Shown piece by piece: positions 1 to 58,475 of a DNA stretch of 58,475 bases. A program made the position numbers and the translations under genes. This DNA is from a virus (taxonomy: Duplodnaviria; Caudoviricetes): IMG/VR virus record IMGVR_UViG_3300003937_000086, positions 1-58,475 of that record. One strand, 5' to 3'. The notes under the pieces are model-generated. The model saw only the letters and a list, made by a program, of their open reading frames with translations, was not told the origin of the DNA and made no database searches. Position 1 is the first letter of the stretch, and each line of letters opens with the position of its first letter.

Positions 1-32
1 ATCATCAACAAAAAATTTAACGGGCTGTCTTT
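1..32. repeat. Terminal 32-bp overlap with 58444-58475 (circular assembly junction)
   Basis: ATCATCAACAAAAAATTTAACGGGCTGTCTTT occurs at both ends, and a reading frame continues across the join. Confidence 0.97.
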
Positions 33-38918: not shown

Positions 38919-41149
38919 TATTCTTGTTCACGAAACTTCAAGGCGGCTTGCGCGTCGCGGATCGCTTGCTCTTGGTCGAACTTCTGTTGCTTGATAGCCA
39001 TGTCTAGTTCAGCCTTCTGCTGCGTGATCTGCATATCGACTTGCGCCTTCTGTAGCTTCATGTCTACCTCAGACATCTGAGGCTGTCCAGCACCATCTTC
39101 AGAAATTTGCTGCTGCTGTTGCTGCTCTCTCTGAATCTTCTCCAACGCCTTCATGGTGTTGTTGATCGCCTCTTCAGCATACTGGAGAACCTGCTTGGCG
39201 TTTCCGACCACGGCCCCCAATGCAGGGTCACCGGATGCGTATTGGGCGGTCTCGGAAATGTGCTGGTAGAGTGCCTGCAACGCCGGAAGAACCTGCTGCG
39301 GGTCTGCTTGGCCTTCGTTGATGGCCTGAATGAACTGCTGCAACAGCGGGACGTGCAACTGCAAGTGCTGGCCGTGTAGCTCGCTGGAGACAACAGGAAC
39401 CTGCTGGCCCTGCTGCAACTGCTGGTTCTCAAGATACGCGATCTTGGTATCTACCGTCTGTCTCTCCGACTCTTGTGCCGGAACGTAGCGATCCGCGAGG
39501 TCGTGGCCGACACGAGTGCTAACGATGTCGCGAGTAAGGTTACGGCGACCAACGTCGTCGAATTGGCCACTAATCCCTTGAAGCTCGCGAAGCGAGACGA
39601 GTCTGTTTGCGTGCGATCCATTGCCAATGGAACGAACTGCTTTGGTCTGTGCGACATCTAATTTTTTAATGAATTCTTTCTCTACGCCCCGCTTCTCACA
39701 GCGGTCGAAGAAATCTTTAATCGCCGCGTCAGGCCGCTTGACCTGAACAATACGGCGGACCATCTCGCGCATCAGGCGAGTCCAACTTGAGTAGAATAGG
39801 TTAAGCGTTGAACCACTAATCCTTGTAGCGACATCCATGTCCGCTACCACCTGCATCTTGTTCTTGTATGGCGAGGTCTGGTTCGGACCATACGGCGACA
39901 TCGTATCAGTGTTGAGGTTCAACTGCTGAGTGAGATCCTGCAAGGCTGGCTGAACCGCTGTTCCTAAGTTCGGGATAGCCTTCTCGACGATCTTCACGTT
40001 CGGTGACATCACGGCATACGCTCCGTAGAACGTGAAGCTGAGTTCGTCTAGCGAGCGTTGGTTCTCCGGCTGGATCATAACAGCCGACGCCAGCATCGCG
40101 CCGTCAATCTGCTGACAGCGGAGCCTGTTACTGGTCTGGATGTGGGAGAAGATCCGCTGGCCGAGTCCTCTGATCGAATGATAAGTGCCGTTACTACCTA
40201 CTCCATAAGTGAAGAAGATATACGCCTGTTCAGGGGTATCGTAGCGACTGACCTTCTTGTAGAGGAAATCTTTAGGACTGGACTCAGCGGATATGTAATG
40301 ACTCACGCTACCGTCGATCTCGCGCACCCAGTAGTGCAGCACGTCAACGGTAGGGTTCTGGATGCCGGTGTAGAGATCGTTGTTCTTGATCTCTGCCTGC
40401 AACGCTTCGTAATCAGAGTAGGTGTTGCCGGACGTGTAGGCGCGGCCCGAGGTCTTGACGTTCTCCATCATGACCCGCTTGACCTCTTCGACGTTCCAGC
40501 CGACAGCCTTAGCGGCCTTCTCGTTCTTAATAAAGTGGTATAGTTCGTGTAGCTGATACTGGCGGCGTCCGACCGCGATATCGATTGAGTTCTCCGATGC
40601 CTGCGACTGGCGGGGAATCAGAATGTCAGCGAAGCCGCCGACGCGGAACTTCCAGTCTTCTGGAGAGTCAAAGTAGGCGACTCCTACTCCGTGCTTGATG
40701 AACTGTGTGCAGAGGCGGAGGTAGCTACTGTGGAACTCCGGCCAACGTCGGAAGAGATCCGTAAGCTCTTGCGCTACGATGTCCTCCTTCGGCCCTGCTT
40801 CGCTTCGCTCGCCTGTCGTAGCCTTTACCTCCACAAGACGCTCCAGAGAGGTGTAGAGGTCAACGTAGGCCGAAAGAGAGATATCCAGCAGACGCTGCGC
40901 CTCTCCGAAGTTCAGGTTGGTCTTGAGTCCCTGACCACTGGCCGCTAACTGCGATTCGTTGTAGGGTGCGACGCCGTCGAACATACTGTCGATCCGCGAG
41001 CGGTTCACGGCGGACTTCTCGTCTGCGCGGAGCAAGGTTGCAAAAATACCTACGGCGGCTTTTACATCCTTGAGACGTGTTTCGACAGGCTTACCCTTCT
41101 CATCGAGGCTCCCTAAGTCGAGGCCGTCTAAGTCAATTAAGTTTGACAT
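38918..41149 (-). CDS. Portal protein (743 aa from ATG 41149)
   Basis: Size, NLNFGEA N-terminus, RGLG motif, Q-rich helical C-terminal barrel, position before the scaffold. Confidence 0.8.
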   Translation of the reverse strand: MSNLIDLDGLDLGSLDEKGKPVETRLKDVKAAVGIFATLLRADEKSAVNRSRIDSMFDGVAPYNESQLAASGQGLKTNLNFGEAQRLLDISLSAYVDLYTSLERLVEVKATTGERSEAGPKEDIVAQELTDLFRRWPEFHSSYLRLCTQFIKHGVGVAYFDSPEDWKFRVGGFADILIPRQSQASENSIDIAVGRRQYQLHELYHFIKNEKAAKAVGWNVEEVKRVMMENVKTSGRAYTSGNTYSDYEALQAEIKNNDLYTGIQNPTVDVLHYWVREIDGSVSHYISAESSPKDFLYKKVSRYDTPEQAYIFFTYGVGSNGTYHSIRGLGQRIFSHIQTSNRLRCQQIDGAMLASAVMIQPENQRSLDELSFTFYGAYAVMSPNVKIVEKAIPNLGTAVQPALQDLTQQLNLNTDTMSPYGPNQTSPYKNKMQVVADMDVATRISGSTLNLFYSSWTRLMREMVRRIVQVKRPDAAIKDFFDRCEKRGVEKEFIKKLDVAQTKAVRSIGNGSHANRLVSLRELQGISGQFDDVGRRNLTRDIVSTRVGHDLADRYVPAQESERQTVDTKIAYLENQQLQQGQQVPVVSSELHGQHLQLHVPLLQQFIQAINEGQADPQQVLPALQALYQHISETAQYASGDPALGAVVGNAKQVLQYAEEAINNTMKALEKIQREQQQQQQISEDGAGQPQMSEVDMKLQKAQVDMQITQQKAELDMAIKQQKFDQEQAIRDAQAALKFREQE

Positions 41150-41157
41150 ACTTGGCG

Positions 41158-41185
41158 AGTATATTGGTTTGGCGCGTAATGTCAA
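41158..41185 (-). promoter_or_regulatory. Sigma70-type (near-)leaderless promoter for the portal gene
   Basis: TTGACA-16-TATACT, 8 nt to ATG 41149. Confidence 0.7.
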
Positions 41186-41622
41186 TCATTGGGGTAAGCC
41201 TCCTCCATAATCTTCTCCATCCGCACCCAGTGGGCGCGACCATCTTCCGTCTTGAGTCGAACGTATTCTTTCTTACCGAAGTCCTTAGTATGTACTAAGA
41301 AGGGGTTTCCTCGATGGCGATTCCCAGTCTTCTGGAACTTCCAGACGGCTCCGTAAGGCGTTACCTTGTAATCGGGGTAGTCGGATACCACTACGAACTC
41401 CTCGTCTGGTAGACCGTGTCGGGCTACAGACGGGTTGCCGTGGTTTACCAGCCTGTATACGCCCTCGTCGTCAGTAACGTAAGAGTGGTGTTTAAGGTTG
41501 CTCCAATACCGCTTTAACTTCTTATCGGTTTTCAGGTTGTATACGTAGTCGTCATCAGTCAGGGCGTAATGGGACGCTCCTTCAATGGGTATCCAATTTT
41601 CGGGTATTATGTGTTCGGTCAT
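41182..41622 (-). CDS. Tandem NUMOD4-like DNA-binding protein without an HNH domain
   Basis: W.PIEG...Y.LT....V.N and F..V.DYPDY.VT.YG.V. Confidence 0.6.
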   Translation of the reverse strand: MTEHIIPENWIPIEGASHYALTDDDYVYNLKTDKKLKRYWSNLKHHSYVTDDEGVYRLVNHGNPSVARHGLPDEEFVVVSDYPDYKVTPYGAVWKFQKTGNRHRGNPFLVHTKDFGKKEYVRLKTEDGRAHWVRMEKIMEEAYPND

Positions 41623-41634
41623 GTCGAAAGTGGT

Positions 41635-41714
41635 AAAAAAAACTTTTCTCTGAGGCTCTTAGTACTCCTTTATATATAGAGGGGTACTAAAGGTCCAGAA
41701 GAAAAGTTTTTTTT
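41635..41714. repeat. Imperfect palindrome, copy B
   Basis: Near-exact reverse complement of 6136-6213. Confidence 0.88.
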
Positions 41715-41754
41715 TCTGGATTTAGATGCTGTTTTTCCGGTAATCCATATCGGT

Positions 41755-41831
41755 AAAAAAACTTTTCTCTGAGGCTCTTAGTACTCCTTTATATATAGAG
41801 GGGTACTAAAGGCCCAGAAGAAAAGTTTTTT
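41755..41831. repeat. Imperfect palindrome, copy C
   Basis: One substitution versus the copy B core. Confidence 0.88.
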
Positions 41832-42090
41832 ATTGGGGTTTTAGTGCCGCTTTTCTAGCACGTCTTTTCTCCATGATTTTAGTCTTGTTTTTGCTGTAAT
41901 ACTCTTTGTTGTAACTACTTACACGTTTTTTAAACGCCTCATATTCCTCCGGTTCTAGGACTTTCGCCACCTCCAACTTTCGAGAGTAGCTGTATTTTGT
42001 CTTACGGTAATACTCATTTTGGTAGTCGAGCCTCTTTTCCCGATTCTTCAAATAGTATTCCTTCTTCTTTTTTGGGTCGTAGTTAGCCAT
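41830..42090 (-). CDS. Small basic K/Y-rich helical protein
   Basis: KEYY.KN repeats; ATG 42090 directly behind a promoter. Confidence 0.7.
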   Translation of the reverse strand: MANYDPKKKKEYYLKNREKRLDYQNEYYRKTKYSYSRKLEVAKVLEPEEYEAFKKRVSSYNKEYYSKNKTKIMEKRRARKAALKPQ

Positions 42091-42095
42091 GCCCA

Positions 42096-42124
42096 ACTCT
42101 AGTCGAAAGCCAGACCCCCGTCAA
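42096..42124 (-). promoter_or_regulatory. Sigma70-type leaderless promoter
   Basis: TTGACG-17-TAGAGT, 5 nt to ATG 42090. Confidence 0.65.
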
Positions 42125-42355
42125 TTTTTTTCTAAACACACATATATACATGATGGACTCCGTCCAAAAAGTCGAGACCTACCGGTGGCGTCTCCCGAAC
42201 CCCGAACCCCGAATCACTATCACTATCATCACATCACGATACCACGATGCGTGAATAGTGGAGAGGGATCAGGGAAGCGGGATTCATGATGAGGGGATCA
42301 GGGAATCAGGTGTCGGCGGATCAGCGAGGCGGCGCGGCTTTGATATGCATCGGAC

Positions 42356-42519
42356 TGGACTGGACTGGACTGGACTGGACTGGACTGGACTGGACTGGAC
42401 TGGACTGGACTGGACTGGACTGGACTGGACTGGGCTGGGCTGGGCTGGGCTGGGCTGGGCTGGGCTGGGCTGGGCTGGGCCACGCTTCCCGCTTCCCGCT
42501 TCCCGCTTCCCTGCTTCCC
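42356..42519. repeat. Compound microsatellite (TGGAC)15(TGGGC)10 followed by ~5 GCTTCCC heptamers
   Basis: Direct reading. Confidence 0.95.
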
Positions 42520-42831
42520 TTATCCCGATTCTTGATTATCGAAAAAAGATTCGATTGTGCTTGCAATAGGTCAATTCCTTTTCTTGGCCCTCAGATGCGA
42601 TCTGAGAGCGTTTGCCCCCATCCGGCTACTGGTATTCAATTTCTTTTCAAAACGCGATCCTGAGCGATTCGCTGTTCTGTTGAACAGTGGAAAGGGTGTT
42701 CAAAACTTTGCCTTTATATAGTGGTGTTTTTTGAGGGGCAGCCGGAACAGGAATAGCCGTTGAGTGGTAAGGGATTAGGGAGTTTGTCGAGTCAGAGGGA
42801 AAAGAAACTGAAGAATAGAGGAGAAAAGAAG

Positions 42832-42860
42832 TTGACCAGCAAACGAGATACGACTACCGT
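42832..42860 (+). promoter_or_regulatory. Early sigma70-type promoter with an A-rich upstream region
   Basis: TTGACC-17-TACCGT; a GNRA hairpin starts 8 nt downstream. Confidence 0.65.
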
Positions 42861-42866
42861 TGCGGC

Positions 42867-43220
42867 AGGTTGACGTGAGTCAGCCGCCCAGCAAGCTCCG
42901 AGAGCAACAGCCCAAGTTAGGCCAGTCTGGATGAGGAGGGGCAAGTGATCATGGATCGCCCCGCCAATCTCCTCTCTCCCGATTCCCCGTCGAGTCTGAG
43001 CCGCTACCAAGCCGCCACGATTAAGAGACCTTCGGATATCATGAGAGAAGAGAAACCGACCGCCAAAGGAAACCGACCATAACGCTACAGCGATGGAAGG
43101 ACCACAGCGGCCAGCGGCGCGAATGCCCCACTGGAAACCATAAGATCGGAGCAGCTCTAGAGAGGGTCCGGTCGGAGATCACACAGTGAGGGTCCGCCAC
43201 GATCCCGCCTCATTCAATCC
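42867..43220 (+). ncRNA. Candidate large structured non-coding RNA/leader
   Basis: No sense ORF of 60 aa or more; a series of hairpins from the predicted transcription start. Confidence 0.55.
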
Positions 43221-43300
43221 GCCATGACCAAGAGAGAGCGATTGGATAGGGGCAAGCTGAACGAATGTTTGGAGGAGCGGATATAACCATGCAACTCACT

Positions 43301-43366
43301 AGCAGTCCCGCTTCGGCGGGGCATAGCTGACAGCCTCCGGCCAGTCCGGAAGCTGTCAGCTATGAA
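43301..43366 (+). repeat. 66-bp two-hairpin element, copy 1
   Basis: Identical to 43577-43642. Confidence 0.95.
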
Positions 43367-43568
43367 TGAACTAAATATTGAACTAACTACTGAGCAAATC
43401 AAGACACTGACCGATTCTGAGTTCTGGGATCACTACGGAATGATCGCCGAAGCCGCGACTCAATGCCCGCAATCAGGCATCTATCGATTCGATGTCACCG
43501 AGCTTAGACGCTTCCAGAATGAAGCACATCGCCGCCTATTGGAGTCGATGGCCCTTCCTAAAAAGTGA
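43362..43568 (+). CDS. Early hypothetical protein (68 aa) between the two 66-bp repeats
   Basis: ATG lies inside repeat copy 1. Confidence 0.7.
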   Translation: MNELNIELTTEQIKTLTDSEFWDHYGMIAEAATQCPQSGIYRFDVTELRRFQNEAHRRLLESMALPKK

Positions 43569-43576
43569 ATCCTAAA

Positions 43577-43642
43577 AGCAGTCCCGCTTCGGCGGGGCAT
43601 AGCTGACAGCCTCCGGCCAGTCCGGAAGCTGTCAGCTATGAA
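43577..43642 (+). repeat. 66-bp two-hairpin element, copy 2
   Basis: Identical to copy 1; contains the ATG of the AAA ATPase. Confidence 0.95.
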
Positions 43643-44741
43643 AGCAAACAATACCCCGACCGCCAATACGGTCGATCAGATAGAAGCGGTTGCCAAGGCC
43701 GCTCTCGCCTCAGATAACTTCCTCCGGATACTTGGCAGATCCGGAGCTGGTAAAACCACGCTGGCCGCCAAGCTGGCAAAGGCTCTCGGCATCGATGCCG
43801 ACCGTGTCAAACTGGTCAACTTCTCCGGCAGCTTGCCATCACAAGTGATCGGCCAGTTAATGCCCGATGCCGCCAGCCGCGAAAGCTGGCGGACCAAGCC
43901 GATTGACCTGCCGCTCCGGCAGGATGTCGGCGATGATCCATATCTCATCATTCTAGATGAGTTTGAAAGCTGGGAGCAAAGCATACAGTGTCTCTTTCAT
44001 GGATTGAAGTCGCCGGATGGCGTGCCGCGAGTCGGCAGTCATGAGCTTCCGAAAGGCACGTTCGTGGTCTTGACTGGCAATCGTCGGGAGGACGCCGCCG
44101 CCAGCAATACTGGCAAGGCTCCGATCGTCGGCAGATCGTCCTCCATCGAATGGCTCCCGACTGTCAAGTCGTGGGCCGATCACGAAGGTGAACGTGCCGC
44201 CGCAAGTCCGATAGCCGCCTTCCTTGGCTACGCCGCCAAGGCCGGATCGGAAGTCGCCGACTTCTTTTGTCCCGCCCCGCCGAAACCTTGGCGCGGCGAG
44301 CCTTACCCACAGCCCCGTGAATGGTCCGCCGCTCTCGCAGTGGAAGCCAGTCCGGCATGGCCAGCCGATCCGGCATTGCAGAATTTGATTCTGGCATCGA
44401 AGGTCGGCCAGTCCGCCGCCGATGCTTGCACGGCGTTCTTATCGCTGGCCAAGAAGATCTTGCCATTGATGGAGTCAATCCTGAAAGGCGAGGCATCACT
44501 GCCGACATCGCCGCAGGATCGATACGCCATCGCTCACTGTGCAATCAGGAGAGCGATTGACCTTGCCGGTAATGATCCGGAGGCCGCCGTTGCCGGTGGC
44601 CACCTCGATCCGATCATCGAGCGGGTATTACTCCCACTCGGACCGGAAATGAGAATCTGGTCCTTCTCCGCCGCCAAGGCGGCTGGCATACCATTGGAGC
44701 TTCACAGAGCGCAAGCTCAACTCCAGAACCTTAACCTCTAA
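43638..44741 (+). CDS. MoxR-like AAA+ ATPase
   Basis: GRSGAGKT, LIILDE, VLTGNR; upstream of a vWA gene. Confidence 0.85.
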   Translation: MKANNTPTANTVDQIEAVAKAALASDNFLRILGRSGAGKTTLAAKLAKALGIDADRVKLVNFSGSLPSQVIGQLMPDAASRESWRTKPIDLPLRQDVGDDPYLIILDEFESWEQSIQCLFHGLKSPDGVPRVGSHELPKGTFVVLTGNRREDAAASNTGKAPIVGRSSSIEWLPTVKSWADHEGERAAASPIAAFLGYAAKAGSEVADFFCPAPPKPWRGEPYPQPREWSAALAVEASPAWPADPALQNLILASKVGQSAADACTAFLSLAKKILPLMESILKGEASLPTSPQDRYAIAHCAIRRAIDLAGNDPEAAVAGGHLDPIIERVLLPLGPEMRIWSFSAAKAAGIPLELHRAQAQLQNLNL

Positions 44742-44759
44742 TCTAGAAAAACCAATACC

Positions 44760-45647
44760 ATGAAAGAATTGAATTCAATACTAATTGCCAAGGTTTCCAC
44801 CGCGAAACCATCACTGACCCGCTCACTTCCGAAACAACTCACTGACCTCTGCCGCCGTGCCGGAGTCGATGAGGCGGAGGTCAACGCACCTTCCGTCAAA
44901 GTTGTGAAGTCGGAGCTGGTGAAAGAAGCCTTCAAACTAATTAACGGAATGACTCCGTTTCTCCGAAAGGGAAAGGTCGGCGTGACCGGAGAGCAACTCT
45001 CCAAAGGCTTGGCCGTTGATGAGATCAACGGCGCGACCTATATCAAGGCCGCCGATGTCGAGGGCATCCAGAAAGAGTTCGACGCCCGTAGGTCAAACCT
45101 CGACAAGCTCCTCGATCAGATCGGGAATCAATACGATTCCCTGATCAGGGAGCGACTGGCAGAGATCGGCAATCTCCGATTCGAGGTCGAAGTTCCAAGC
45201 CGCGAGGAATTCCTCGCCGACTTTGGATTCGACTTGGAATTCCGGTCGGTTGACAGTGGCGTTTCAAACGCCGTCCTCGATCAAGTAAGCGGCGAGGTCG
45301 CCGCCCGACTTCGGGCAAACAATGCCAAGGTGCAGGATGAATTCCGCGCCGCCCATGCCCAGCCGATCCGGACCTGCATTTCGGAGCTGACCGAAACCAT
45401 CGGCCAGCTTGTCGATGGCAAGCGGCTCCGGCAGGAGCGGCTCGACAAGGTCGTGGCCGCCGCCGCCGATATGCGTGAGCAAAATTGGCTTGGCCTGCCG
45501 GACCTCTCCGGTCTGGCAACCAAGCTTGAGGGGCTGGCAGCCAAGAAGGAAGACCTTCCCACTGCCGCCGATAGAGAGGCCCACGCCGACAAGGCAAAGG
45601 CCGTGAAGGCGGAGGCCGAAAACGTCCTCGCCGGATTTGGAATCTAA
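44760..45647 (+). CDS. Helical protein, DUF3150-like partner of the AAA/vWA cluster
   Basis: Position, size and helical character; P..EE....F.FD motif. Confidence 0.6.
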   Translation: MKELNSILIAKVSTAKPSLTRSLPKQLTDLCRRAGVDEAEVNAPSVKVVKSELVKEAFKLINGMTPFLRKGKVGVTGEQLSKGLAVDEINGATYIKAADVEGIQKEFDARRSNLDKLLDQIGNQYDSLIRERLAEIGNLRFEVEVPSREEFLADFGFDLEFRSVDSGVSNAVLDQVSGEVAARLRANNAKVQDEFRAAHAQPIRTCISELTETIGQLVDGKRLRQERLDKVVAAAADMREQNWLGLPDLSGLATKLEGLAAKKEDLPTAADREAHADKAKAVKAEAENVLAGFGI

Positions 45648-45662
45648 GTAGAAACTGATAAT

Positions 45663-46959
<1,297 letters not shown>

Positions 46960-49023: not shown

Positions 49024-49059
49024 GAAGGAGGTAGGGAGAAATCCCTGCCTCCTTTTTTT
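49024..49059 (+). terminator. Intrinsic terminator closing the early operon
   Basis: AAGGAGGTAGGGA-GAAA-TCCCTGCCTCCTT followed by a T run. Confidence 0.85.
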
Positions 49060-49131: not shown

Positions 49132-52100
49132 CTACTCAGATTCTGTAATAGGCCGGACAGGAATGTAGCGGTTGATCTTTGAGGCGTGGTCGTAGATCTG
49201 CTGCGCTCGCGCCCTGCCGTATTCATCAGTCCTTGGGTCGAGCAGACTCTCGATAATGTATTTGAACGACGGCCTGTCCATGTATCCTTTACTCAGTAGA
49301 GCGACCCGATCTCGACCCAGCTTCTTATCCTTCATCCCCTTGAGGAGGTCGGTGTTAGTGAGTCCGAGAGAGGCGAACCCTTTATTGATCCGCATCAGTT
49401 CGTAGTTAAGGAGGCGTCGATCCTCGATGTTCTCATCGATGATGTCCGCTACATCTCCGTCGCTCATAGGGACGTTACGCTTCACCGCGTTGAGTCCGCT
49501 CTTCACGTTGTTGAACCTATTGTTCAGATCCAGCAGGTATCGCGAATACTGTTTCTGGAGATCGACATCATGGATACGGAACGGCATCGCGCCGTCCATA
49601 ATCTCAAGAGTCATGCCCTTCAGAGATCCGGTTGCCCATCCCTCGAAAAAATCCTTACCGAGTCGCGGAGCGTATGCCTCCTTGGCGATGTGGCCTAAGA
49701 TCTTCGATCCGGCTTCCATCGGGCCATCGGCCCCCTTGTTCCAAATTGGTTTACCCGTTGACGGGTTAAGGTTTCGGCGTGCCTCAGACACTGCTCCCGA
49801 GAGGATCTGATCGTCTAAGTATTGATCCCTCACCAAGCCTAACGCGATGGCGGCCCCCGCTTCAGTGAACTCACCTCTGCGGATGTTCTCATACCCTCGC
49901 AGGAACGGATCGACCAGTAGCGAGTATGGATTGACGTAGGTCAGGTCAACCGACTTCAGCTCACCGTTCCATCTGTAATAGAAGAACGTATGCCCTCTGA
50001 GGTAATCTGGAATGGATGCACGCATTGCCTCGTCCTCCTCATCCCCGATGCCCGATAGCGCGGCGAGGACCATAGGGAGAGCGGAAGAAAGAACTCCTAT
50101 CGTTCCGATCATTGATCCCCTTCTCAGTTTACCTCTCTGAACCAGAACAGGGTTGCCGCTGGCGATCTCCTCACTGGCGAGCTTGAACGTGTTGATCACG
50201 ATCCGCGGAACCTCCATCTTGAATCGGATGAACGGGGCGAACAGCAGGCCGAGACCGGACTTCGTGAACGCTGCGACGGCTGGCGGTGCTTGGCTGTATG
50301 CCTGTGAGGTCATGACTACCTTGCGAGCGGCCAGACGTTTGATCTGCGTGTCGCTCATAGCGGCGAGGTTGTTGACCCCCACTTTGCCGTCCTTGACCGT
50401 GCTTGTGTCGGCGGCTTTTGCTTCCATCAGGATTGCCAACTCATGGTTGTAGTAGGCGATCTTGTAGGCGGCGTCGAGAGCGGCGGATAGATCCTGCGCC
50501 TTCTTCTCAATCATCGCTAGACCCTTAGTGACTTTATTGAGTTTCGTCTTTTCACCTAAGTCTTCGATCTGTTTCCTGATGCCGTCGGGTGTTACCTTAC
50601 CGTTCAGGAGGTCTTTCAGAACTCCGGCGCGGAGTTCGTCGCCCTTGATGTTCAGGCCGATAAGCTCATTAAGCTCTGGGTCAATCTCGCCGTCTTTGAA
50701 AGGTCTTAGGTCATAAGTTCCTTTCAACATTTCAGAGACCATCTTGTCGTAGCGGAAGAATCCCTGAGAGGTTCCGAACAATATGTTGCCGATCCCGTTA
50801 CGTAAGTAGAATCCGATGGAGCCTAGAGTCTTAGCTGCCATCGCCTTACCGCTAAGGTTAGCGGCTAAACCAACAGCTCCTTTAACAGCTTTCTCCGCTG
50901 TGTCGGCGTATCCCATCGAGAGGGAGTCCATGAGCGCAACGTCCAGAAGCTCTTTGAATTTACGATCTACCTGCATTCCTGAGAGGGGGTCGTTCTTACT
51001 CGGCGCACCCGATCTAGCGGCCTCAAAGTTAGCATACTTGGCGCGGCTCTCTGCGGTAGCTAACTTCTCTTTCACCGTGACCATGACGCCCGTGTCCTTG
51101 CCGTATTTCACCATTTGGTTCAGGAATGCCTGCTGCGACGCGATTGTCGCGACGGTCGAGTAAGTCCGAAGAATCAAATCGATACCGGACTCTGACCCGA
51201 TTTCGCCGAGAAGATTTCGGATCGCCTCCGGCAGCTCTTTACGGCGTCTGAGGTTGTCCTCAATCATCTTGTAACCTTTAGGCGTGGTCGTCGTCGAGTC
51301 TCTGCCGCCCTCCTCATACTGCATCAAGAAGGTGTTAAGCGAACCCTGCGCGTATGATCCATGTGGACTGCTTTGGTTCTCTCTTTCGAGGAGTATGCGA
51401 GCTTCAACCTTGGCACGCGACTCGTCCATGCCACCGTCAAACAGCTCCTTGGCCTTATTTTTTATGTATTGGTCCTCAAAGAACTCCATAGCGGCGTCCC
51501 TCACATCTTGGTAATCGGGATCTTCCCTCACCTTCTGGAGGTAAGACGAGTCGGTGAACATCCGGTAACTGCGGGTAATGTAGACTCCTCCGGTCTTAGA
51601 GATCTTGGCTCCAATATTTTTATCGAGGCCAGAAGCAACGAGTTTCTTCTGGAGCGGGATGATCAACCTCTGCCGTATGTCGATAATGTGAGCGGCTAGC
51701 TCTGGAGAGTCCTTAGCGAGGTCTCTCAGAGCGGTGTCGCGGTCGGCTTCCCTAGACTTGCGAGCATCTTCGTAAGCTTTATCGGTGGCTTCAGTTCTAA
51801 CATTATGGGCGAGTCCCTTTAAGGAGTCAGCTTGTTCGTCAGTGATCTCACCTGCTTTGCGCTTATTCTCTGCGTCGGCGTGTGCGTCGTCGTAATCTTT
51901 CTCGATAGCGTCAAGCACTTCATCAGTAACCATGTTACCTGTGTAGTGTCCCTGCGCGAGAGCGATCATTTCCATCGGCGCGTTTTCGTATCCGCCGTAG
52001 GTCTCCTTAATGAGTTTATCCATCTCCTGTTTATAGGCGACGACGTTAGCCTCAGTAAGTCGCTTGTAAGCGTCTCGGTTCTGAATCAATCGGCGGAAGG

Positions 52101-55100
52101 CTTCTGGAAGCTCGCCAGCGAACACATTATTCAGGAACTTCATGATGAAGTTCTGTGGCTTTCCGGTCTCGGTCTCGTATACAGGAATCTCAAGGAGATC
52201 GACCACTGCGGAGAAGTCTATGTTCGATCCTGTCTGCTGGCCGGACGGCGCGGCTGCGGCTGCGGCTGCGGTGGGGGCTGAATACAGAGGTAGTTTTACG
52301 GTCTCAACTCCCTCGTCCGCTTTTCTAAATATAAGTTCGCGTTGAGAAACACCAACGGACGGTGGGAAGATGCTGTCTTCCTCCGATTTTTTAATTGGAT
52401 CTGTGTTGCCGTCATAGGGGTCGGCTGCTTTTTTGGGGTTAGGTTTCTTAGCCGAGTAAACTACGTCTTTCCACAGGTTGGACTCACTCAGAACGTGGAC
52501 TACAGGTGTCTCACCCGAAGTGCTGCGTATAGAATATGGGTATGAGTCATGGAAGTCAGTCTCGACGGCTTCGACCTCTCCCTTCATCGAGAGAACAGCG
52601 TAAACCCGCCCAGATGCTTTCTTATCCATTTGCTGAAATTGCTGGAAGGTCTTGACCAGCGGCTCTGCAAAAAGATCTGCCATGCCCTGCATGACTGATG
52701 CCTGTGCGAGTTTGCCTTGAGGTATGTTACCTTTATTGTATAGGTTCTTGTCACCAGCCAGAAGATCAGCTATGTTCAAAGCCTGATTTTTCTTTTTATC
52801 GAAAGCAGCTTTTTCCTTTGGGCTGAACTTCTTCTGAACTTCCACTGTCGGCAGTTTCATGCTGTCAGCTATTGCTGACGATATCTGAGCGATAAAGGAA
52901 CCACGTTGTGGGAACACTGACTCTTCAGGGTGGAGATTCTTTTTCATCTCCTCTATGTTTTTAGCCAGTCCGTCTTTCAGCTTCAGTTTCCTTGAAAATT
53001 CTTTGATGGTGGTCGTCTCGACTCCTGTATCTTTGTCTTTCTTTTTAACAACTAATCTCTCTTTACTGGCGTTAACAATAGCACGGTTTACGACCGCCTC
53101 AGTGATCCCATACTTCTTGGGGTTCTTGGCTAGAGTGGCGAACAGGTTGACCGCTCCCGTAGCCATTGTTGTGGAGCTAAACATCTTCTCGATGGGAGCG
53201 GACGTGAGAGCCATCAGAATAGTTCCGTTGTTGCGCTTGGATATCTTGTTAAGGTTTTCCGCCATGTTCACGGCGGCGTCCTTGGTAGATGCCCAGAAAT
53301 ACCCTTGGTCACCGAACATGACTGGGTAGTAAACACCTCCCTTGCCGTCTACGACCTTATCGCCCTCGACCTCCAGTGTGCCTGCCATCGCGCCGTCAGG
53401 TTGGTGGAGCATGACGGCCATTCCCTCAAACTGGTCGAGGGATTGCTGTATCTTAATGTATCCGTTCTTGATCTTCTCGTAAAACTTCCCGTCTTCTTTG
53501 ACGTAGATGTGTTTGACTATGGGATCACTCGCACTGGCGATTTCTGGTGGGATCTCGGCGGGTGTAGTAGCACCAGCCACCGGAGCAGAGTAAAGGTTAC
53601 GGGTAGGTTTGAGTGGAGTAGGGTCTGATTGTTTTTCATCAATCAAACTCTTCATTGTTTCGTGAGCAGGAGGATCTACTTGTGGATCAACCTTTTCGTA
53701 TCTCGCACCCTTAACCCAGATCGCGAAGTTTTGAAATGGGTTTGTGCTTGATGAATCAAGGTTACTGACCATGACCATCTCATCAGCACCAACAAATTTA
53801 CTCTGTGTGTCGAAGACAGGCTTACCTGCGGTGTCTGTAGACACACGATACATATAGTTGCCCATTGCAGGATTGTATGACAGGGCATCCCACCCTTCCT
53901 TCATATCCGAAACATCAATATCTTCATTAGCAGATACTAGTTCCCCTGTCGGCCCACCGATTACATTCTTCGGACCCTGTGCATACACAACAGTTCCTTC
54001 AGGTATCAGAGAGTTAGGTGCTTTGTTTTTAAGTTGAGGGTTGGTCAACTTGAGGTCAGTCATGTTGATTGCTGAAGTTACTCCAGTTCTCTTTGCGGCA
54101 GTATTGATTGAGTCCAACACATCTATGAGTTTCATGTCACTTGTTAGCTCATACTTGCTGGCACTTCCTTTAGATAAGAAGTTCCTGTAGACAGTTTTGT
54201 TGAGGTTTGGGATACCTGCATTCTCCATGCGGACGTTGAATGCATTATACTTCGCACCACCGATCTCTAACGAGAAGGGCATTACACCCAAAGGATACTT
54301 CTCTAAGTCTGCTTGAGACTCTCTGCTTTTTCTGCCCAGCGTTATGTTGGTGTGAGAGAGTGTTACCTTAACATTCTTGTTTGGATTCTTCGCATCATCA
54401 AGAATCTGTTTAGGTAACCCAGCAGAGCCTCCAACGGATTCGCCGTTCACTAATTTACCTACTGCACTGTGGTCAGAAGGGATAGCCCCAGCGTTTGAAC
54501 CCCACCCAGATTGTAGTTTAGGTGGGGGTGGGAAATCCACCTCCGCCATATACTCAGCACCAGCCACCGGAGCAGAGTAAAGGATACTGCTTTTACTTTC
54601 ATCGAACCGCTGGCTAAGTGGGATCACGTTGCCGTTAGCGTCACGGGTGATAGGGTCTGCGGATTTGATTTGAGACGGGTCTCTAAATGCTATAGTGTTG
54701 GCTTCCTCTCCAGATGTCTCCTGTATCGTCATCGCGTCATACTTACTGAGAACAGCATCGACTACCTTGTCGTTCTCCCAGACAATATAACTTCCCCCCT
54801 CAATCATTCTCATCGTTTGGGGGAGGATCTCAGACTCTGACTTGACCCCGATGGACTCCATGATTTCATCAGAGAACTCCCTCCAATTAGATGGATCAAA
54901 TATTTTATTTGCACTAACGTAACCTTCTATTACACGTATACCCATCGACATCTGTGCCTGTATCATCGTCATCCCATCTAGCAAACCACGTTCAATTTCG
55001 GCTCTTTTTTCAAAGACCTCCTTTGAAAGGTTGGATGGAATGTCGTCCCCATACTCGGCACTTAGTTTATCAAACGCATCCTCAGCATATTCGTTACCCT

Positions 55101-58100
55101 CCTGCTTCGCAGCATCGATTCTTTTTTGAACGTCTGCTTCTGGATTTCTGTTTCCGCCATACCCACGGGGGTAAGTTTCCGCCATCTCACGATCCTTGGA
55201 AAAGTAGATTAGCTTGTTAATGTCTCTGTCACTCTTGAACTTATCAAACCGCTTCTTTGTGCCGTGATACAGCTTCATTAGTGGGTTATACCCCGCCTTC
55301 TTAGCAGCCTCATCAACCATGCGCTGCTGTGTCTCAACGTCACCGGATTCGACCGCCGCCATATACTCAGCGTCTTCTACCGGAGCAGACGCTAAACCAA
55401 CGAAGTCCTGATTCACGGTCCCGAACATCCTGAAAGCCTCCATCGGGTTTTCGGGATTGAACGCCATCTTCGTGGGCTGGCGGACGAAACCTACCTCGAT
55501 AGCTCGCATCTCAATAATCAACTTATTGAGGGCGATATCTGCTGCGGCTCCGATCTTTTTACGGTTGGCGACCCATCGGTTGATGATCCCCCTAAAGTAA
55601 CGATTCAGAATCCTAAGTAAGGAAGGCTTTGATTTCCAGAATTGGGTGTCGTCCTCAGTAGTGAAACCCCGTGTGACCTTCTGGAGGTGCATACGAAGTT
55701 TCTCTTCCGCCAACTGATACTTGGCGTCTGCGACCACTTGAGGGTCAGATGACTGAAGTCTCGCCAGCATGGTCGCAAGTCCACCTTCGTTTCCGACGAG
55801 GTATTCTTTAGCGATGTCCACGTAGTCTGAGTCAGAAAGACTGTTGATGTAATTCTGAATCTCTTCGTCGGTCAAGGCGTTGAAGCTGGCGTTATGGGTC
55901 AGCTCCTCGTTGATTATAACACCAGCAATTGCGCGTCCGGCGATATCACTAACGTCGCCTGTCTGGCTCAACATAACAGGCAGGTTGATGAAGATCGCTG
56001 AAGAATCAGGGTCCACAAAGGCAGCACTGCCGCCAGACTCAGTAGTGAGTTTTATGTCTATACCCACCGGAACCAGACCCCTGATGTAATTGTATAGTTC
56101 TCTTACTTTAGGTCGGTCTGCCTCTGGAACACCTTCAAGGAATCTCTCAGCATCTTCCACGTCTTTCTGACGCTTCGCTTCAAGACGTGCCTGCTCTGTC
56201 TCGCGCTGCATCTCGCGCAACGCCTCTGCCCTCTCCATCCGAGACTCGGTTTGGGCAACTGGTGAACTGTATAACGTCACTGCATTACCGATCTGACCGC
56301 CCAAAGCTTTGGCGTTGGTGGGCGTTGTCTTGCGGGTATTTCTACCCACGTCGATAACATCCCCAAGAGATTTTGCTACTTTTTTGGCGGCCCCTCTACC
56401 TACATTAGGGAACAGCATGGCTAGGTTAATCAGGAAGCGATCAAAGATTGAAACCTTGTCACGCTTGAGATCTCTAACGTGCTTCTGCACTTCTTCCGAT
56501 AACAAGAACTGAGCGGTGAACTCATTAAGATCGACAAGAGCGTTCTCAAGAGACGGAACGGGTCCGCTTCTTTCTTTCTGCGATTCGTAAGACTCTTTTG
56601 CGAAGTCGAAAACAGCGGATAACTGTTTAAGTGTAGTCTGGACTTGAGACGATTTCTCCGCGATTTGAGCCTCAGTAGCTGAAGTGGTATCAGAAATAAA
56701 TGCGTGGACGTATTCCTCAAGTAGTGTGTTGACGAGACCTCGACCGTTTCCAGATGTCACGTTGATAAACACAGTGTGCGAGCCGTCGTTCCCCTTGATG
56801 TATTTGCCTGCGATGTCGGCGGTTGTCTCCCCCAACACAAACTTAACCCCCTTGATCAAATCAGTGTCACGCAGAAGCAGGTCAGCTACGACTTTGTGAG
56901 ACGGGTTATCTGAATTTTTAGCGACCTCTTTAAGGGCTTTGATGACGCTGTCAGGGTTCCCACTCTCAAGACCCAGTCTCTCGATATCAGCCTCGTTCTC
57001 AGCCGTGATGGTTGCCCTCTCGGCGGCAGAGATGTTAGATCTCGATAGGTGGGTGCGGACTGCTTTAGTTAAAGCAATCATTGTGTTCTTCGCCTCGTCA
57101 ATAGAGATCTGTGTCCCCACGGCGTCAGTGAACAGAGCTTGGTATACCTTTACAGCATCAGAGTTCTCGTAGCTCGCACCGTCCGAGCGGGTTGCGAAGT
57201 TGACGAGAAGTAGAGCGTTAAGAAAATCTGTGCCGCTGGTCGAGAGTGCTTCATCCTCGATAGCGTCCACAAGCTTATTAACAGATGGTCTGGTGTCGCC
57301 GTTTCCAGATGACATCCATGAAGTAAACAGCCCGAACACGTCTTCAGCACTCGCGTTATCAACCATGCCCTTCATCTCAGGAGTGGGGTCGTTCAAGACC
57401 TCGTCAAGGATAATCTTGTTGACCTCTCTGCGTAAGTCTGGGCTGGTATTCACCGCCCCAATCGCGGTGTCTATCGCTCCAGATACTGCGTCACTTATAT
57501 CTTGTGGAGAAGCTAGTTCACCTTCAGGGTTACGCCCGAAGTTCGCGATCCACCCGCTTACTTTAGCGGTCCTGAACTCAGCGGGGGCTACGTCGAACGG
57601 GAGGGTGGAGACCGCTCTCTGTTCTCTAAGGGAGTTGGCGTCGTCCTGTTGCAACTTAAACCTATCGGTAGCTTTTCTAAGTAGCGTGTCGAAGGTAGGC
57701 GTCGCGTTGTTAGCGAAGTCAGGGTTGTTCTGGAGTTTCTGCTCTATGAACAATCCGAGAATCGTTTCGCTCGTAAGGTTGATGTTAGACTCTACTTTAA
57801 CAAAAGGTAGAAGTTTTTGGGCTGCTTGCTCTACATTTTTAGATCCTGTCTGGGCTACCAGCTCATCGAAGGGCGTGGTAGGATTGGTTCCCTGTCCGAA
57901 CTCTTTTACTTTTTCGCGGAGACTGAACAACTGTGCGTTGAACAAGAATTCTTGCTTGGCCGACTCTAACGCAGCGGCGCGGAACTCAAGATCAAGCTCA
58001 CCGCTGGGAGTTTCAAAGCGAGCTTGGATGGGCCGTGTCGTCTCGTCTCCGGTCTTCTCCAGCTCAAGAGCGAATCTATTGATTCTATTTTTAATGTCAG

Positions 58101-58475
58101 TAGTGCTACCAAAAAACTTTCCTTCTATGGGTCCGCCGTTTTCTGGGTCGAAGTCTGCGACGCCATTTGGTAGGGTGGCTGGCTTGAACGGGATACTGGC
58201 TAAGGCAGCAGCTCTCGCGTTGTTCGGCTCAATCGAACTCACGTCCCTCGCGTTACCGAGCTTAGACTCTAGCAGGCGACCGTCGGCGGTAGGCCCGACC
58301 ACGTCAGTAACCCTCCCGTCCTTGATTCGGATAGCGGGGTTGAGGTTTGCTCTATTGAAACTGCGGGGAACCTTAACGGTTTTAGCAGCCCTCAACATCT
58401 CAATAATAGAGATCGGGTCGTTATCGAATATGCCGTTACCACTATCATCAACAAAAAATTTAACGGGCTGTCTTT
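49132..58475 (-). CDS. C-terminal ~3100 aa of the 4300-aa polyvalent/ejection protein (two EExxH zincin-like domains, an ART-like domain and unknown domains)
   Basis: LLEEYVHA, IINEELTHNA, KLYHGT...IYFS...AETY...DPSQIKSADP; the frame is open to the window end. Confidence 0.88.
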   Translation of the reverse strand, partial: RQPVKFFVDDSGNGIFDNDPISIIEMLRAAKTVKVPRSFNRANLNPAIRIKDGRVTDVVGPTADGRLLESKLGNARDVSSIEPNNARAAALASIPFKPATLPNGVADFDPENGGPIEGKFFGSTTDIKNRINRFALELEKTGDETTRPIQARFETPSGELDLEFRAAALESAKQEFLFNAQLFSLREKVKEFGQGTNPTTPFDELVAQTGSKNVEQAAQKLLPFVKVESNINLTSETILGLFIEQKLQNNPDFANNATPTFDTLLRKATDRFKLQQDDANSLREQRAVSTLPFDVAPAEFRTAKVSGWIANFGRNPEGELASPQDISDAVSGAIDTAIGAVNTSPDLRREVNKIILDEVLNDPTPEMKGMVDNASAEDVFGLFTSWMSSGNGDTRPSVNKLVDAIEDEALSTSGTDFLNALLLVNFATRSDGASYENSDAVKVYQALFTDAVGTQISIDEAKNTMIALTKAVRTHLSRSNISAAERATITAENEADIERLGLESGNPDSVIKALKEVAKNSDNPSHKVVADLLLRDTDLIKGVKFVLGETTADIAGKYIKGNDGSHTVFINVTSGNGRGLVNTLLEEYVHAFISDTTSATEAQIAEKSSQVQTTLKQLSAVFDFAKESYESQKERSGPVPSLENALVDLNEFTAQFLLSEEVQKHVRDLKRDKVSIFDRFLINLAMLFPNVGRGAAKKVAKSLGDVIDVGRNTRKTTPTNAKALGGQIGNAVTLYSSPVAQTESRMERAEALREMQRETEQARLEAKRQKDVEDAERFLEGVPEADRPKVRELYNYIRGLVPVGIDIKLTTESGGSAAFVDPDSSAIFINLPVMLSQTGDVSDIAGRAIAGVIINEELTHNASFNALTDEEIQNYINSLSDSDYVDIAKEYLVGNEGGLATMLARLQSSDPQVVADAKYQLAEEKLRMHLQKVTRGFTTEDDTQFWKSKPSLLRILNRYFRGIINRWVANRKKIGAAADIALNKLIIEMRAIEVGFVRQPTKMAFNPENPMEAFRMFGTVNQDFVGLASAPVEDAEYMAAVESGDVETQQRMVDEAAKKAGYNPLMKLYHGTKKRFDKFKSDRDINKLIYFSKDREMAETYPRGYGGNRNPEADVQKRIDAAKQEGNEYAEDAFDKLSAEYGDDIPSNLSKEVFEKRAEIERGLLDGMTMIQAQMSMGIRVIEGYVSANKIFDPSNWREFSDEIMESIGVKSESEILPQTMRMIEGGSYIVWENDKVVDAVLSKYDAMTIQETSGEEANTIAFRDPSQIKSADPITRDANGNVIPLSQRFDESKSSILYSAPVAGAEYMAEVDFPPPPKLQSGWGSNAGAIPSDHSAVGKLVNGESVGGSAGLPKQILDDAKNPNKNVKVTLSHTNITLGRKSRESQADLEKYPLGVMPFSLEIGGAKYNAFNVRMENAGIPNLNKTVYRNFLSKGSASKYELTSDMKLIDVLDSINTAAKRTGVTSAINMTDLKLTNPQLKNKAPNSLIPEGTVVYAQGPKNVIGGPTGELVSANEDIDVSDMKEGWDALSYNPAMGNYMYRVSTDTAGKPVFDTQSKFVGADEMVMVSNLDSSSTNPFQNFAIWVKGARYEKVDPQVDPPAHETMKSLIDEKQSDPTPLKPTRNLYSAPVAGATTPAEIPPEIASASDPIVKHIYVKEDGKFYEKIKNGYIKIQQSLDQFEGMAVMLHQPDGAMAGTLEVEGDKVVDGKGGVYYPVMFGDQGYFWASTKDAAVNMAENLNKISKRNNGTILMALTSAPIEKMFSSTTMATGAVNLFATLAKNPKKYGITEAVVNRAIVNASKERLVVKKKDKDTGVETTTIKEFSRKLKLKDGLAKNIEEMKKNLHPEESVFPQRGSFIAQISSAIADSMKLPTVEVQKKFSPKEKAAFDKKKNQALNIADLLAGDKNLYNKGNIPQGKLAQASVMQGMADLFAEPLVKTFQQFQQMDKKASGRVYAVLSMKGEVEAVETDFHDSYPYSIRSTSGETPVVHVLSESNLWKDVVYSAKKPNPKKAADPYDGNTDPIKKSEEDSIFPPSVGVSQRELIFRKADEGVETVKLPLYSAPTAAAAAAAPSGQQTGSNIDFSAVVDLLEIPVYETETGKPQNFIMKFLNNVFAGELPEAFRRLIQNRDAYKRLTEANVVAYKQEMDKLIKETYGGYENAPMEMIALAQGHYTGNMVTDEVLDAIEKDYDDAHADAENKRKAGEITDEQADSLKGLAHNVRTEATDKAYEDARKSREADRDTALRDLAKDSPELAAHIIDIRQRLIIPLQKKLVASGLDKNIGAKISKTGGVYITRSYRMFTDSSYLQKVREDPDYQDVRDAAMEFFEDQYIKNKAKELFDGGMDESRAKVEARILLERENQSSPHGSYAQGSLNTFLMQYEEGGRDSTTTTPKGYKMIEDNLRRRKELPEAIRNLLGEIGSESGIDLILRTYSTVATIASQQAFLNQMVKYGKDTGVMVTVKEKLATAESRAKYANFEAARSGAPSKNDPLSGMQVDRKFKELLDVALMDSLSMGYADTAEKAVKGAVGLAANLSGKAMAAKTLGSIGFYLRNGIGNILFGTSQGFFRYDKMVSEMLKGTYDLRPFKDGEIDPELNELIGLNIKGDELRAGVLKDLLNGKVTPDGIRKQIEDLGEKTKLNKVTKGLAMIEKKAQDLSAALDAAYKIAYYNHELAILMEAKAADTSTVKDGKVGVNNLAAMSDTQIKRLAARKVVMTSQAYSQAPPAVAAFTKSGLGLLFAPFIRFKMEVPRIVINTFKLASEEIASGNPVLVQRGKLRRGSMIGTIGVLSSALPMVLAALSGIGDEEDEAMRASIPDYLRGHTFFYYRWNGELKSVDLTYVNPYSLLVDPFLRGYENIRRGEFTEAGAAIALGLVRDQYLDDQILSGAVSEARRNLNPSTGKPIWNKGADGPMEAGSKILGHIAKEAYAPRLGKDFFEGWATGSLKGMTLEIMDGAMPFRIHDVDLQKQYSRYLLDLNNRFNNVKSGLNAVKRNVPMSDGDVADIIDENIEDRRLLNYELMRINKGFASLGLTNTDLLKGMKDKKLGRDRVALLSKGYMDRPSFKYIIESLLDPRTDEYGRARAQQIYDHASKINRYIPVRPITESE

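Follow-up and report, generated by a model that had tools for sequence, protein, structure and literature searches.

A putative hairpin-rich, optional 5' leader ahead of an AAA ATPase and vWA-like gene cluster in an uncultured marine phage

What occupies the stretch between positions 42832 and 43300 of the virus record IMGVR_UViG_3300003937_000086, just upstream of a plus-strand gene cluster encoding an AAA ATPase and a vWA-like protein? The record comes from an uncultured marine phage and is complete, at 58,475 bp with terminal repeats; "the window" below means this whole stretch. A preliminary description, made from the letters alone, had proposed a structured non-coding RNA heading an early operon and had suggested several functions for it. 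That proposal stands in part: the stretch is non-coding, its hairpins are largely kept in relatives and it heads the AAA/vWA cluster, while the functional ideas found no support. The reading that we favour, with a probability of about one half, is that positions 42862-43300 are a non-coding, hairpin-rich 5' leader of the plus-strand cluster, optional and acting in cis. The word "early," as applied to the cluster, is an assumption of the preliminary description. The features of the leader are the following:

42868-42885, plus strand: 5' GNRA hairpin GGUUGAC-GUGA-GUCAGCC
42895-42898 with 42902-42905, plus strand: small hairpin GCUC-CGA-GAGC
42928-43293, plus strand: core domain of about 366 nt, from RNAalifold on four homologues, closed by a predicted long-range helix
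42933-42974, plus strand: hairpin in which GAGGAGGGGC is paired to GCCCC..CUCCUC, with AUG 42951-42953 in the apical loop
43077-43096, plus strand: hairpin CCAU..AUGG with CGC/GCG
43111-43134, plus strand: hairpin CCAG.GGC/GCC.CUGG
43144-43173, plus strand: hairpin GAUCGGA/UCCGGUC
43187-43212, plus strand: stem UGAGG/CCUCA

The AAA protein has 18 database relatives, with identities of 57-97%. The loci recovered (2 viral, 19 metagenomic) gave, once same-contig duplicates had been removed, the window plus 18 loci, and 16 of these were judged, L010, L020 and L023 being set aside because their contigs are cut upstream. A long leader is present in six of the 16 (the window, L005, L006, L009, L011 and L024), each time starting with a GNRA-capped hairpin, and the other ten have a short leader in which TTGAC (CTGAC in L021) lies 59-104 nt before the AAA ATG. 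Missing as it is in 10 of 16 relatives, the long leader is dispensable. Four of the six long leaders (those of the window, L024, L011 and L005) share the core at 42928-43293, which we call type A, and these are the four homologues compared throughout. The bodies of the leaders in L006 (type B) and L009 (type C) are of similar length and cannot be aligned with type A; they contain no convincing open reading frames (ORFs), and their folding z scores are -5.47 and -3.77, including the 66-nt element described below.

Leader and genes have diverged to different extents. L024 has a core 96% identical to that of the window (88% over 774 nt) with an AAA protein only 57% identical, and joins this window-like core to a different allele of the 5' hairpin. 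Conversely, the AAA proteins of L011 and L005 are 95% and 93% identical to that of the window, with leader cores only 73% and 71% identical. Judging by these comparisons, the leader is an optional, mosaic cassette between the conserved promoter region and the first 66-nt element, and it has passed between phages separately from the downstream genes. A blastn search with 41600-43700 gave no match in 50,697 GenBank phage records, exact and degenerate pattern scans of IMG/VR returned only the two known relatives, and a scan of 185,579 prokaryote genomes found no homologue. A profile-guided scan of IMG/VR added one AAA relative, 26% identical, which was left out of the analysis.

As for coding potential, the leader is not translated into a conserved protein. 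No open frame is common to the four homologues, whose longest open stretch in any frame is 105 codons. Their alignment contains frame-breaking gaps, with runs of 1, 2, 5 and 8 nt alongside those of 3 and 6 nt, and substitutions are evenly spread over the codon positions (9/15/5, 47/45/39 and 46/49/41), with no three-base periodicity. The claim that the stretch is non-coding is therefore borne out. A recoded gene was also rejected, since TAA, TAG and TGA are present in each plus-strand frame and no single stop reassignment would open one. The tiny ORFs of 13 and 20 aa given in the preliminary description do exist, but a 43-aa ATG ORF at 42950-43081 (45 aa from the GTG at 42945), preceded by GAGGAGG, had been overlooked. 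The ORF from ATG 42950 measures 43, 43, 23 and 78 aa in the four homologues, its frame being shifted by the loss of 2 nt in L011 and the gain of 1 nt in L005. It has no conservation at the protein level, with three non-synonymous changes and one synonymous change between the window and L024, and the frameshifting insertions and deletions rule out a conserved small protein.

The same ORF bears on a possibility that we regard as improbable, namely that GAGGAGG and the AUG/GUG at 42945-42953 start a leader peptide whose translation, gated by a hairpin of the GAGGAGGGG/CCUCC type, would set folding, polarity or decay downstream. GAGGAGG stands 5-11 nt before GTG 42945 and ATG 42950, and the AUG sits in the apical loop. 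All four homologues have this block unchanged; its pairing partner in L005 and L011 is UCACCUCCU, which resembles the 3' tail of 16S rRNA. Strong Shine-Dalgarno-like sequences are also scarce in this phage: of 45 gene starts, most have none, and the sequence upstream of the genes is A/C-rich. This suggests a host with little Shine-Dalgarno use, although sigma-70-like promoters and intrinsic terminators are present nonetheless. This rarity cuts both ways, since a GGAGG in a phage that hardly uses such sites need not be one, and the shifted frame in L011 and L005, together with the three non-synonymous changes against one synonymous, speaks against a peptide.

The hexamers, stems, repeats and small ORFs that had been listed are all in the sequence at 42832-43300, and the linkers are A-rich as described, A making up 36% of unpaired and 14% of paired positions. 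The stems, which had been proposed in advance on the sequence of the window by itself, hold up across the four homologues: 94.1% of 203 cells are paired, as against 35-48% for slid partners, and two-sided changes occur at four pairs, a result matched by 3 of 500 shuffles. In the core fold from RNAalifold, 97.9% of cells keep pairing, and 123 of 158 paired columns are invariant versus 101 of 221 unpaired ones. This fold places hairpins at 42935-42965, 42994-43029, 43077-43096, 43111-43134, 43144-43173 and 43218-43281. The predicted closing helix joins UGGAUG 42928-42933 to CAUGCA 43288-43293, and its outermost pair is U-A in the lineage of the window and L024 and C-G in L011 and L005.

Six of the seven stem sets first proposed are kept in the homologues, some of them by compensatory changes. 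The 5' hairpin exists as two alleles at the same place, both GNRA-capped: GGUUGAC-GUGA-GUCAGCC in the window and L009, and GUCRCC-GCGA-GGUGAC in L024, L011, L005 and L006. Beside it, the GCUC/GAGC hairpin is extended in L024 to GGCUC/GAGCC by a matched insertion of G and C, and is missing in the other 5' allele of L011, L005 and L006. The hairpin at 42933-42974, in which the GAGGAG/CUCCUC, GGGC/GCCC and GAUC/GAUC pairings are all present, contains 35 nt (GGATGAGGAGGGGCAAGTGATCATGGATCGCCCCG) identical in all four homologues. The stem at 43077-43096 is constant, its loop being UACA, GAGA or longer through an 8-nt insertion (L011); CCAG/CUGG becomes CCAG/UUGG among homologues; and a G-C pair of GAUCGGA/UCCGGUC is replaced by A-U in L024. 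Two apical pairs that had been drawn cannot form, as U86-A89 leaves a 2-nt loop and CUCU/AGAG leaves none.

Folding statistics point to one strand. The minimum free energy (MFE) of the window leader has a z of -1.99 (4 of 100 shuffles are as good), compared with -0.12 on the minus strand, and the plus/minus values in the four homologues are -2.17/-0.44, -2.39/+0.17, -2.67/-0.77 and -2.11/-0.23. For the alignment, the alifold z is -3.24 on the plus strand, where none of 60 column shuffles is as good, and -0.08 on the minus strand, where 27 of 60 are. Among 16 coding windows of the same length, those in the AAA and 295-aa genes fold even more strongly (z from -4.1 to -6.7), but the strongly folding coding windows are symmetric between strands, whereas the leader is asymmetric in four of four homologues. 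This strand asymmetry is the feature that distinguishes the leader from the coding controls, and it points to self-complementarity of the DNA in the controls and to G.U-dependent pairing of RNA in the leader. The coding DNA at 43800-45840, which covers the AAA and 295-aa genes, is in itself unusual, with z from -3.5 to -6.7 against dinucleotide shuffles, about equal on both strands; this suggests dense self-complementarity at the DNA level and not mRNA structure. Taken together, the comparative data make a conserved plus-strand RNA structure in the leader likely, if not proven.

The 3' end of the leader is marked by a double-hairpin element of 66 nt that recurs before the AAA gene:

43301-43366, plus strand: 66-nt element, copy 1, at the 3' end of the leader; its ATG starts the 68-aa ORF
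43362-43568, plus strand: accessory small ORF of 68 aa, one cassette, with homologues in L020 and L023
43577-43642, plus strand: 66-nt element, copy 2; its ATG starts the AAA ATPase gene
43638-44741, plus strand: AAA ATPase gene (AAA_5, phrog_1297)

The first stem-loop of the element (SL1) is CCCGC-UUCG-GCGGG and the second (SL2) has a stem of 19 bp whose 3' arm finishes with the ATG of the next ORF. We aligned 12 distinct copies from eight sources (the window, L005, L006, L009, L011, L020, L023 and L024). Pairing holds in 94.7% of their cells, both sides have changed at 9 of the 25 pairs (0 of 500 shuffles match this), and at one position 10 of the 12 copies have a G.U pair, possible on the plus strand only. 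Such covariation and G.U pairs are good evidence that the plus strand is read as RNA at the element, and they make processing there plausible. A copy stands at the 3' end of the leader in all six long-leader loci, and CATAGC upstream of the AAA gene is found in none of the ten short-leader loci. The small ORFs between elements vary, with at least five different ones across the window, L005, L009, L011, L020, L023 and L024; the product of the 68-aa ORF has no Pfam or PHROG match. At neither copy is there a promoter-like hexamer or a terminator-like site on the plus strand, the hairpins being followed by GCAUAG and AUGAA, with no U run. The double-stranded RNA that RNase III takes up is about 22 bp long (PMC6212723); the 19-bp stem comes near this, its length being the one observation that points to cleavage.

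We rejected an integron-like attC reading of the element, since Pfam and/or PHROG scans of 29 ORFs turned up no integrase and the G.U pairs favour an RNA. A variant of the element, with the first hairpin followed by a different sequence, occurs in four relatives (L005 5947, L009 698, L010 208 and L020 797), where it starts a conserved 10-aa ORF, MTRPLAAM(S/G)W. In three of them, 51-69 nt separate this ORF from the AAA start downstream; in L009, where it lies at the leader's 3' end, the distance is 628 nt.

Upstream of the leader are two further features:

42650-42723, plus strand: conserved upstream control region, with AAACGCGATCCTG.GCGATTCGCTGTT, the small hairpin CTGTTC-TGTT-GAACAG, and TATATAGTG
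42795-42860, plus strand: candidate promoter, with a purine-rich tract, TTGACC at 42832-42837, a 17-nt spacer and TACCGT at 42855-42860

The control region, which includes TATATAG, is the most conserved non-coding block of the clade. It is mostly retained in nearly all relatives, short-leader ones included, and parts of it are common to all 16 judged; each of its motifs occurs once in the window. In the short-leader relatives its counterpart reads TATATAGGGAGA, with TATATAG and then GGAGA, which resembles the initiation region of T7-class promoters. A phage-polymerase promoter at TATATAG was rejected, with no RNA polymerase recognised in the proteins scanned and the motif present once in the genome. 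As for the candidate promoter, the letters TTGACC-17-TACCGT given in the preliminary description are there, and the pattern AAAAG..TTGAC matches 14 of the 16 judged relatives (the variants being TTGTC in L005 and CTGAC in L021). TACCGT agrees with TATAAT at three of six positions.

These elements can be put together in a simple scheme. Host RNA polymerase would transcribe the leader from the conserved region at 42650-42860, and the 5' GNRA hairpin would cap and protect its 5' end. The core would fold as a closed multi-hairpin domain. An RNase III-type enzyme might then cut the 19-bp hairpins of the 66-nt elements, separating the leader from the cistrons and freeing the start codons buried in the hairpins. 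The leader would thus act in cis, stabilising or insulating the head of the (assumed) early message.

Several observations weigh against this reading. Sixteen sense coding windows of the same length have a mean z of -1.38, with five at or below -2, and coding alignments reach alifold z values of -2.05, -2.86 and -0.45, so that the folding statistics of the leader are unexceptional compared with the coding RNA of this genome. On the question whether it folds better than shuffled controls, which the preliminary description had raised, the answer is hence divided: it beats shuffles on the plus strand only, and coding controls reach similar z. The "compensatory" pairs counted by RNAalifold are uninformative: the 12 on the plus strand compare with 13 on the opposite one, and coding controls give 3-13. 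Because the four homologues form only two lineages (the window with L024, L011 with L005), the covariation rests on approximately one deep split. The cores are 71-73% identical compared with 82-84% for adjacent coding DNA, which implies modest constraint. One of the seven stem sets, UGAGG/CCUCA, is broken in L011 and L005. The alternative fold once proposed between AAACCGACC, at 43053 and 43070, and GGUCGG, at 43170-43175, falls away, as neither the second AAACCGACC nor GGUCGG is conserved in homologues. The promoter also has a weak side: its -10-like hexamer varies among relatives (TACCGT, TACCTT, GAGGCT, TCAGGA), and a sigma-70 scan of 41000-44500 gave no plus-strand promoter, the candidate site falling under threshold. 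Both the RNase III cleavage and the protection of the 5' end are things we infer. Finally, four RNA libraries, one containing 5% of the sampled words and three next to none, yielded two 151-nt contigs inside the AAA gene and none on the leader, and are uninformative on its transcription; one unrelated contig touches 35 nt of the 66-nt element.

Could the leader then have no RNA function at all, being a decayed cassette, a spacer or a DNA element (operator, origin or recombination substrate) with incidental hairpins? Its optional presence in the clade, its lower conservation than that of neighbouring coding DNA and a folding z inside the range of the coding controls would fit, as would its location in a repeat-rich gap with a microsatellite and palindromes, and in an array of cassettes with swapped small ORFs. 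We nevertheless consider this unlikely. The folding excess is confined to the plus strand in four of four homologues, when coding windows that fold well are symmetric; changes preserve structure, including a paired insertion and length changes restricted to loops; paired columns are more conserved than unpaired ones; and, as for a decayed gene, no frame keeps a recognisable ORF.

Another explanation is that cleavage at the 66-nt element releases a discrete RNA of some 430-500 nt, which persists and acts in trans on host or phage factors as a decoy, sponge or scaffold. The predicted long-range helix would close the core, invariant blocks are long (35 nt identical in four homologues otherwise 71-73% alike), and SL1, the UUCG hairpin immediately 3' of the core, could serve as a cap once a cut in SL2 had set the RNA free. 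The leader is also passed between phages whole, whichever genes follow it, and, most intriguingly, two non-homologous, non-coding, well-folding leader types fill the same slot in L006 and L009. Set against this are the unexceptional structure statistics and the ten relatives of 16 that have no such leader. Known families give no help either: cmscan of the whole window against all 4227 families of Rfam 15 returned no match at gathering score, at E <= 10 the region 42100-43700 gave three hits far below it (two human long non-coding RNA families and one small RNA family), and ARAGORN found no tRNA or tmRNA. The absence of tRNA, tmRNA, RNase P and intron signatures noted in the preliminary description is thus confirmed, and a search that covered GOLLD, ROOL, OLE and riboswitches identified no known family. 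Nor is there a target in the genome, as the leader has no complementarity longer than 12 nt (E > 1) to the rest of it. An antisense regulator of the phage's own genes was rejected on the same result, and nothing points to the decoy or scaffold role first suggested. A trans-acting RNA is, on balance, a minority possibility. A stronger version, which strikes us as quite unlikely, takes types A, B (L006) and C (L009) as at least three unrelated, interchangeable RNA cassettes, carried in an array of early-gene cassettes that the 66-nt hairpins punctuate. Each would be stable and trans-acting once cut, perhaps a decoy that occupies a nuclease or an RNA-binding defence of the host; if this were true, phages would swap RNA "morons" as they do small protein genes.

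The remaining plus-strand genes and the surroundings of the leader are as follows:

41830-42096, minus strand: small gene, kept in relatives
about 1.27 kb between this minus-strand small gene and the plus-strand cluster: gap housing the leader
between the AAA gene and the DUF2201 gene in the cluster listing, plus strand: a 295-aa gene, then a 96-aa gene
45919-46959, plus strand: DUF2201 vWA-like protein

The cluster ends at a strong terminator-like hairpin (49024-49055). This arrangement bears on the idea of a cis-acting antitermination RNA, put-like or nut-like, that would modify RNA polymerase soon after the promoter. A stable GNRA hairpin directly after the candidate promoter, kept in two alleles, recalls such elements, by analogy of position only. 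However, terminator-like sites on the plus strand are limited to 46623 (weak, seven pairs, three of them G-C), 48987, 49024-49055 and, beyond the cluster, 49237, none of them convincing between the leader and 49024, and nothing points to the put-like antiterminator of the preliminary description. Ten relatives have the same genes and no leader, and the product of the first ORF has no arginine-rich N-terminus. We regard antitermination as highly improbable.

The gap around the leader is rich in repeats and includes palindromes and a microsatellite. The latter has a pentanucleotide unit, (GGACT)n grading into (GGGCT)n; it occupies 42352-42483 and is followed by CTTCCCG-type repeats at 42487-42520; the whole tract (42352-42520) yields spurious ORFs of 103 and 125 aa, and relatives have different short-repeat arrays at the position of the microsatellite. 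A palindrome centred on CCTTTATATATAGAGG, bordered by one run of A and one of T, is present twice (41636-41725 and 41755-41844) between minus-strand genes of 88 and 146 aa; the copies share 94% identity across 90 nt and look like bidirectional terminators. Elsewhere in the window, PHROG matches include the large terminase subunit, a helicase, an exonuclease, a DNA polymerase, a primase, a tail protein and an endolysin, and the majority of the remaining proteins are without any family. A minus-strand frame stays open past both termini of the record, from 49132 to 58475 and on through 1-3591 (3113 + 1197 codons). If the record were circularly joined, it would encode a single giant protein of more than 4000 aa, whose sole domain match is ART-PolyVal (E 8e-7), slightly under the Pfam cutoff.

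How does the favoured reading, a cis-acting leader, compare with known systems? A literature search on structured phage leaders turned up nothing specific. One likeness is to phage T7. The early RNA of T7 has a long untranslated leader, and its RNase III sites are irregular stems upstream of a start codon and between cistrons. Here too, a long untranslated 5' leader precedes the first (assumed early) gene, conserved hairpins stand between consecutive cistrons (the 66-nt element precedes both the small ORF and the AAA gene), and the products could gain stability from hairpins that remain at the RNA ends. Unlike in T7, the stems here are 19 bp long, almost perfectly paired and take in the start codon, with cleavage only predicted; there is no sequence relation, and the leader is optional within the clade. 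The leader of lambda N carries nutL and an RNase III-sensitive hairpin before N. It is similar in having a promoter-proximal hairpin, a long leader and a large hairpin at the first small gene that would block translation unless processed, but the window contains no identified N-like protein and no terminators found to need read-through. GOLLD, ROOL and OLE RNAs are comparable in a size of several hundred nt, a multi-hairpin architecture and a phage context, and differ in that the leader matches no Rfam family at gathering score.

A last comparison is with the PeSL cassettes of T4-type phages, which combine a strong sigma-70-like promoter with a terminator stem-loop (PMC2839356). As there, short repeated stem-loop motifs flank variable, non-essential small ORFs, and recombination between copies explains insertions, deletions and replacements among close relatives. 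In contrast to PeSL, the 66-nt element has no plus-strand promoter hexamers and no U-tract and carries a start codon, and the leader itself has no PeSL counterpart.

On present evidence we see here an ordinary 5' leader under weak constraint, for which functional roles beyond that of a leader are unsupported. Dispensable to the phage clade, it adds one modest new case to a type of element that is already familiar. If it is transcribed and processed in the way we infer, it would be a compact natural example of modular RNA punctuation, in which hairpins containing start codons delimit swappable cassettes, one of them purely RNA. It would also provide a defined RNA motif for Rfam-style curation, and would extend the ideas of T7 RNase III sites and T4 PeSL cassettes to an unrelated lineage of marine phages largely without Shine-Dalgarno sites.

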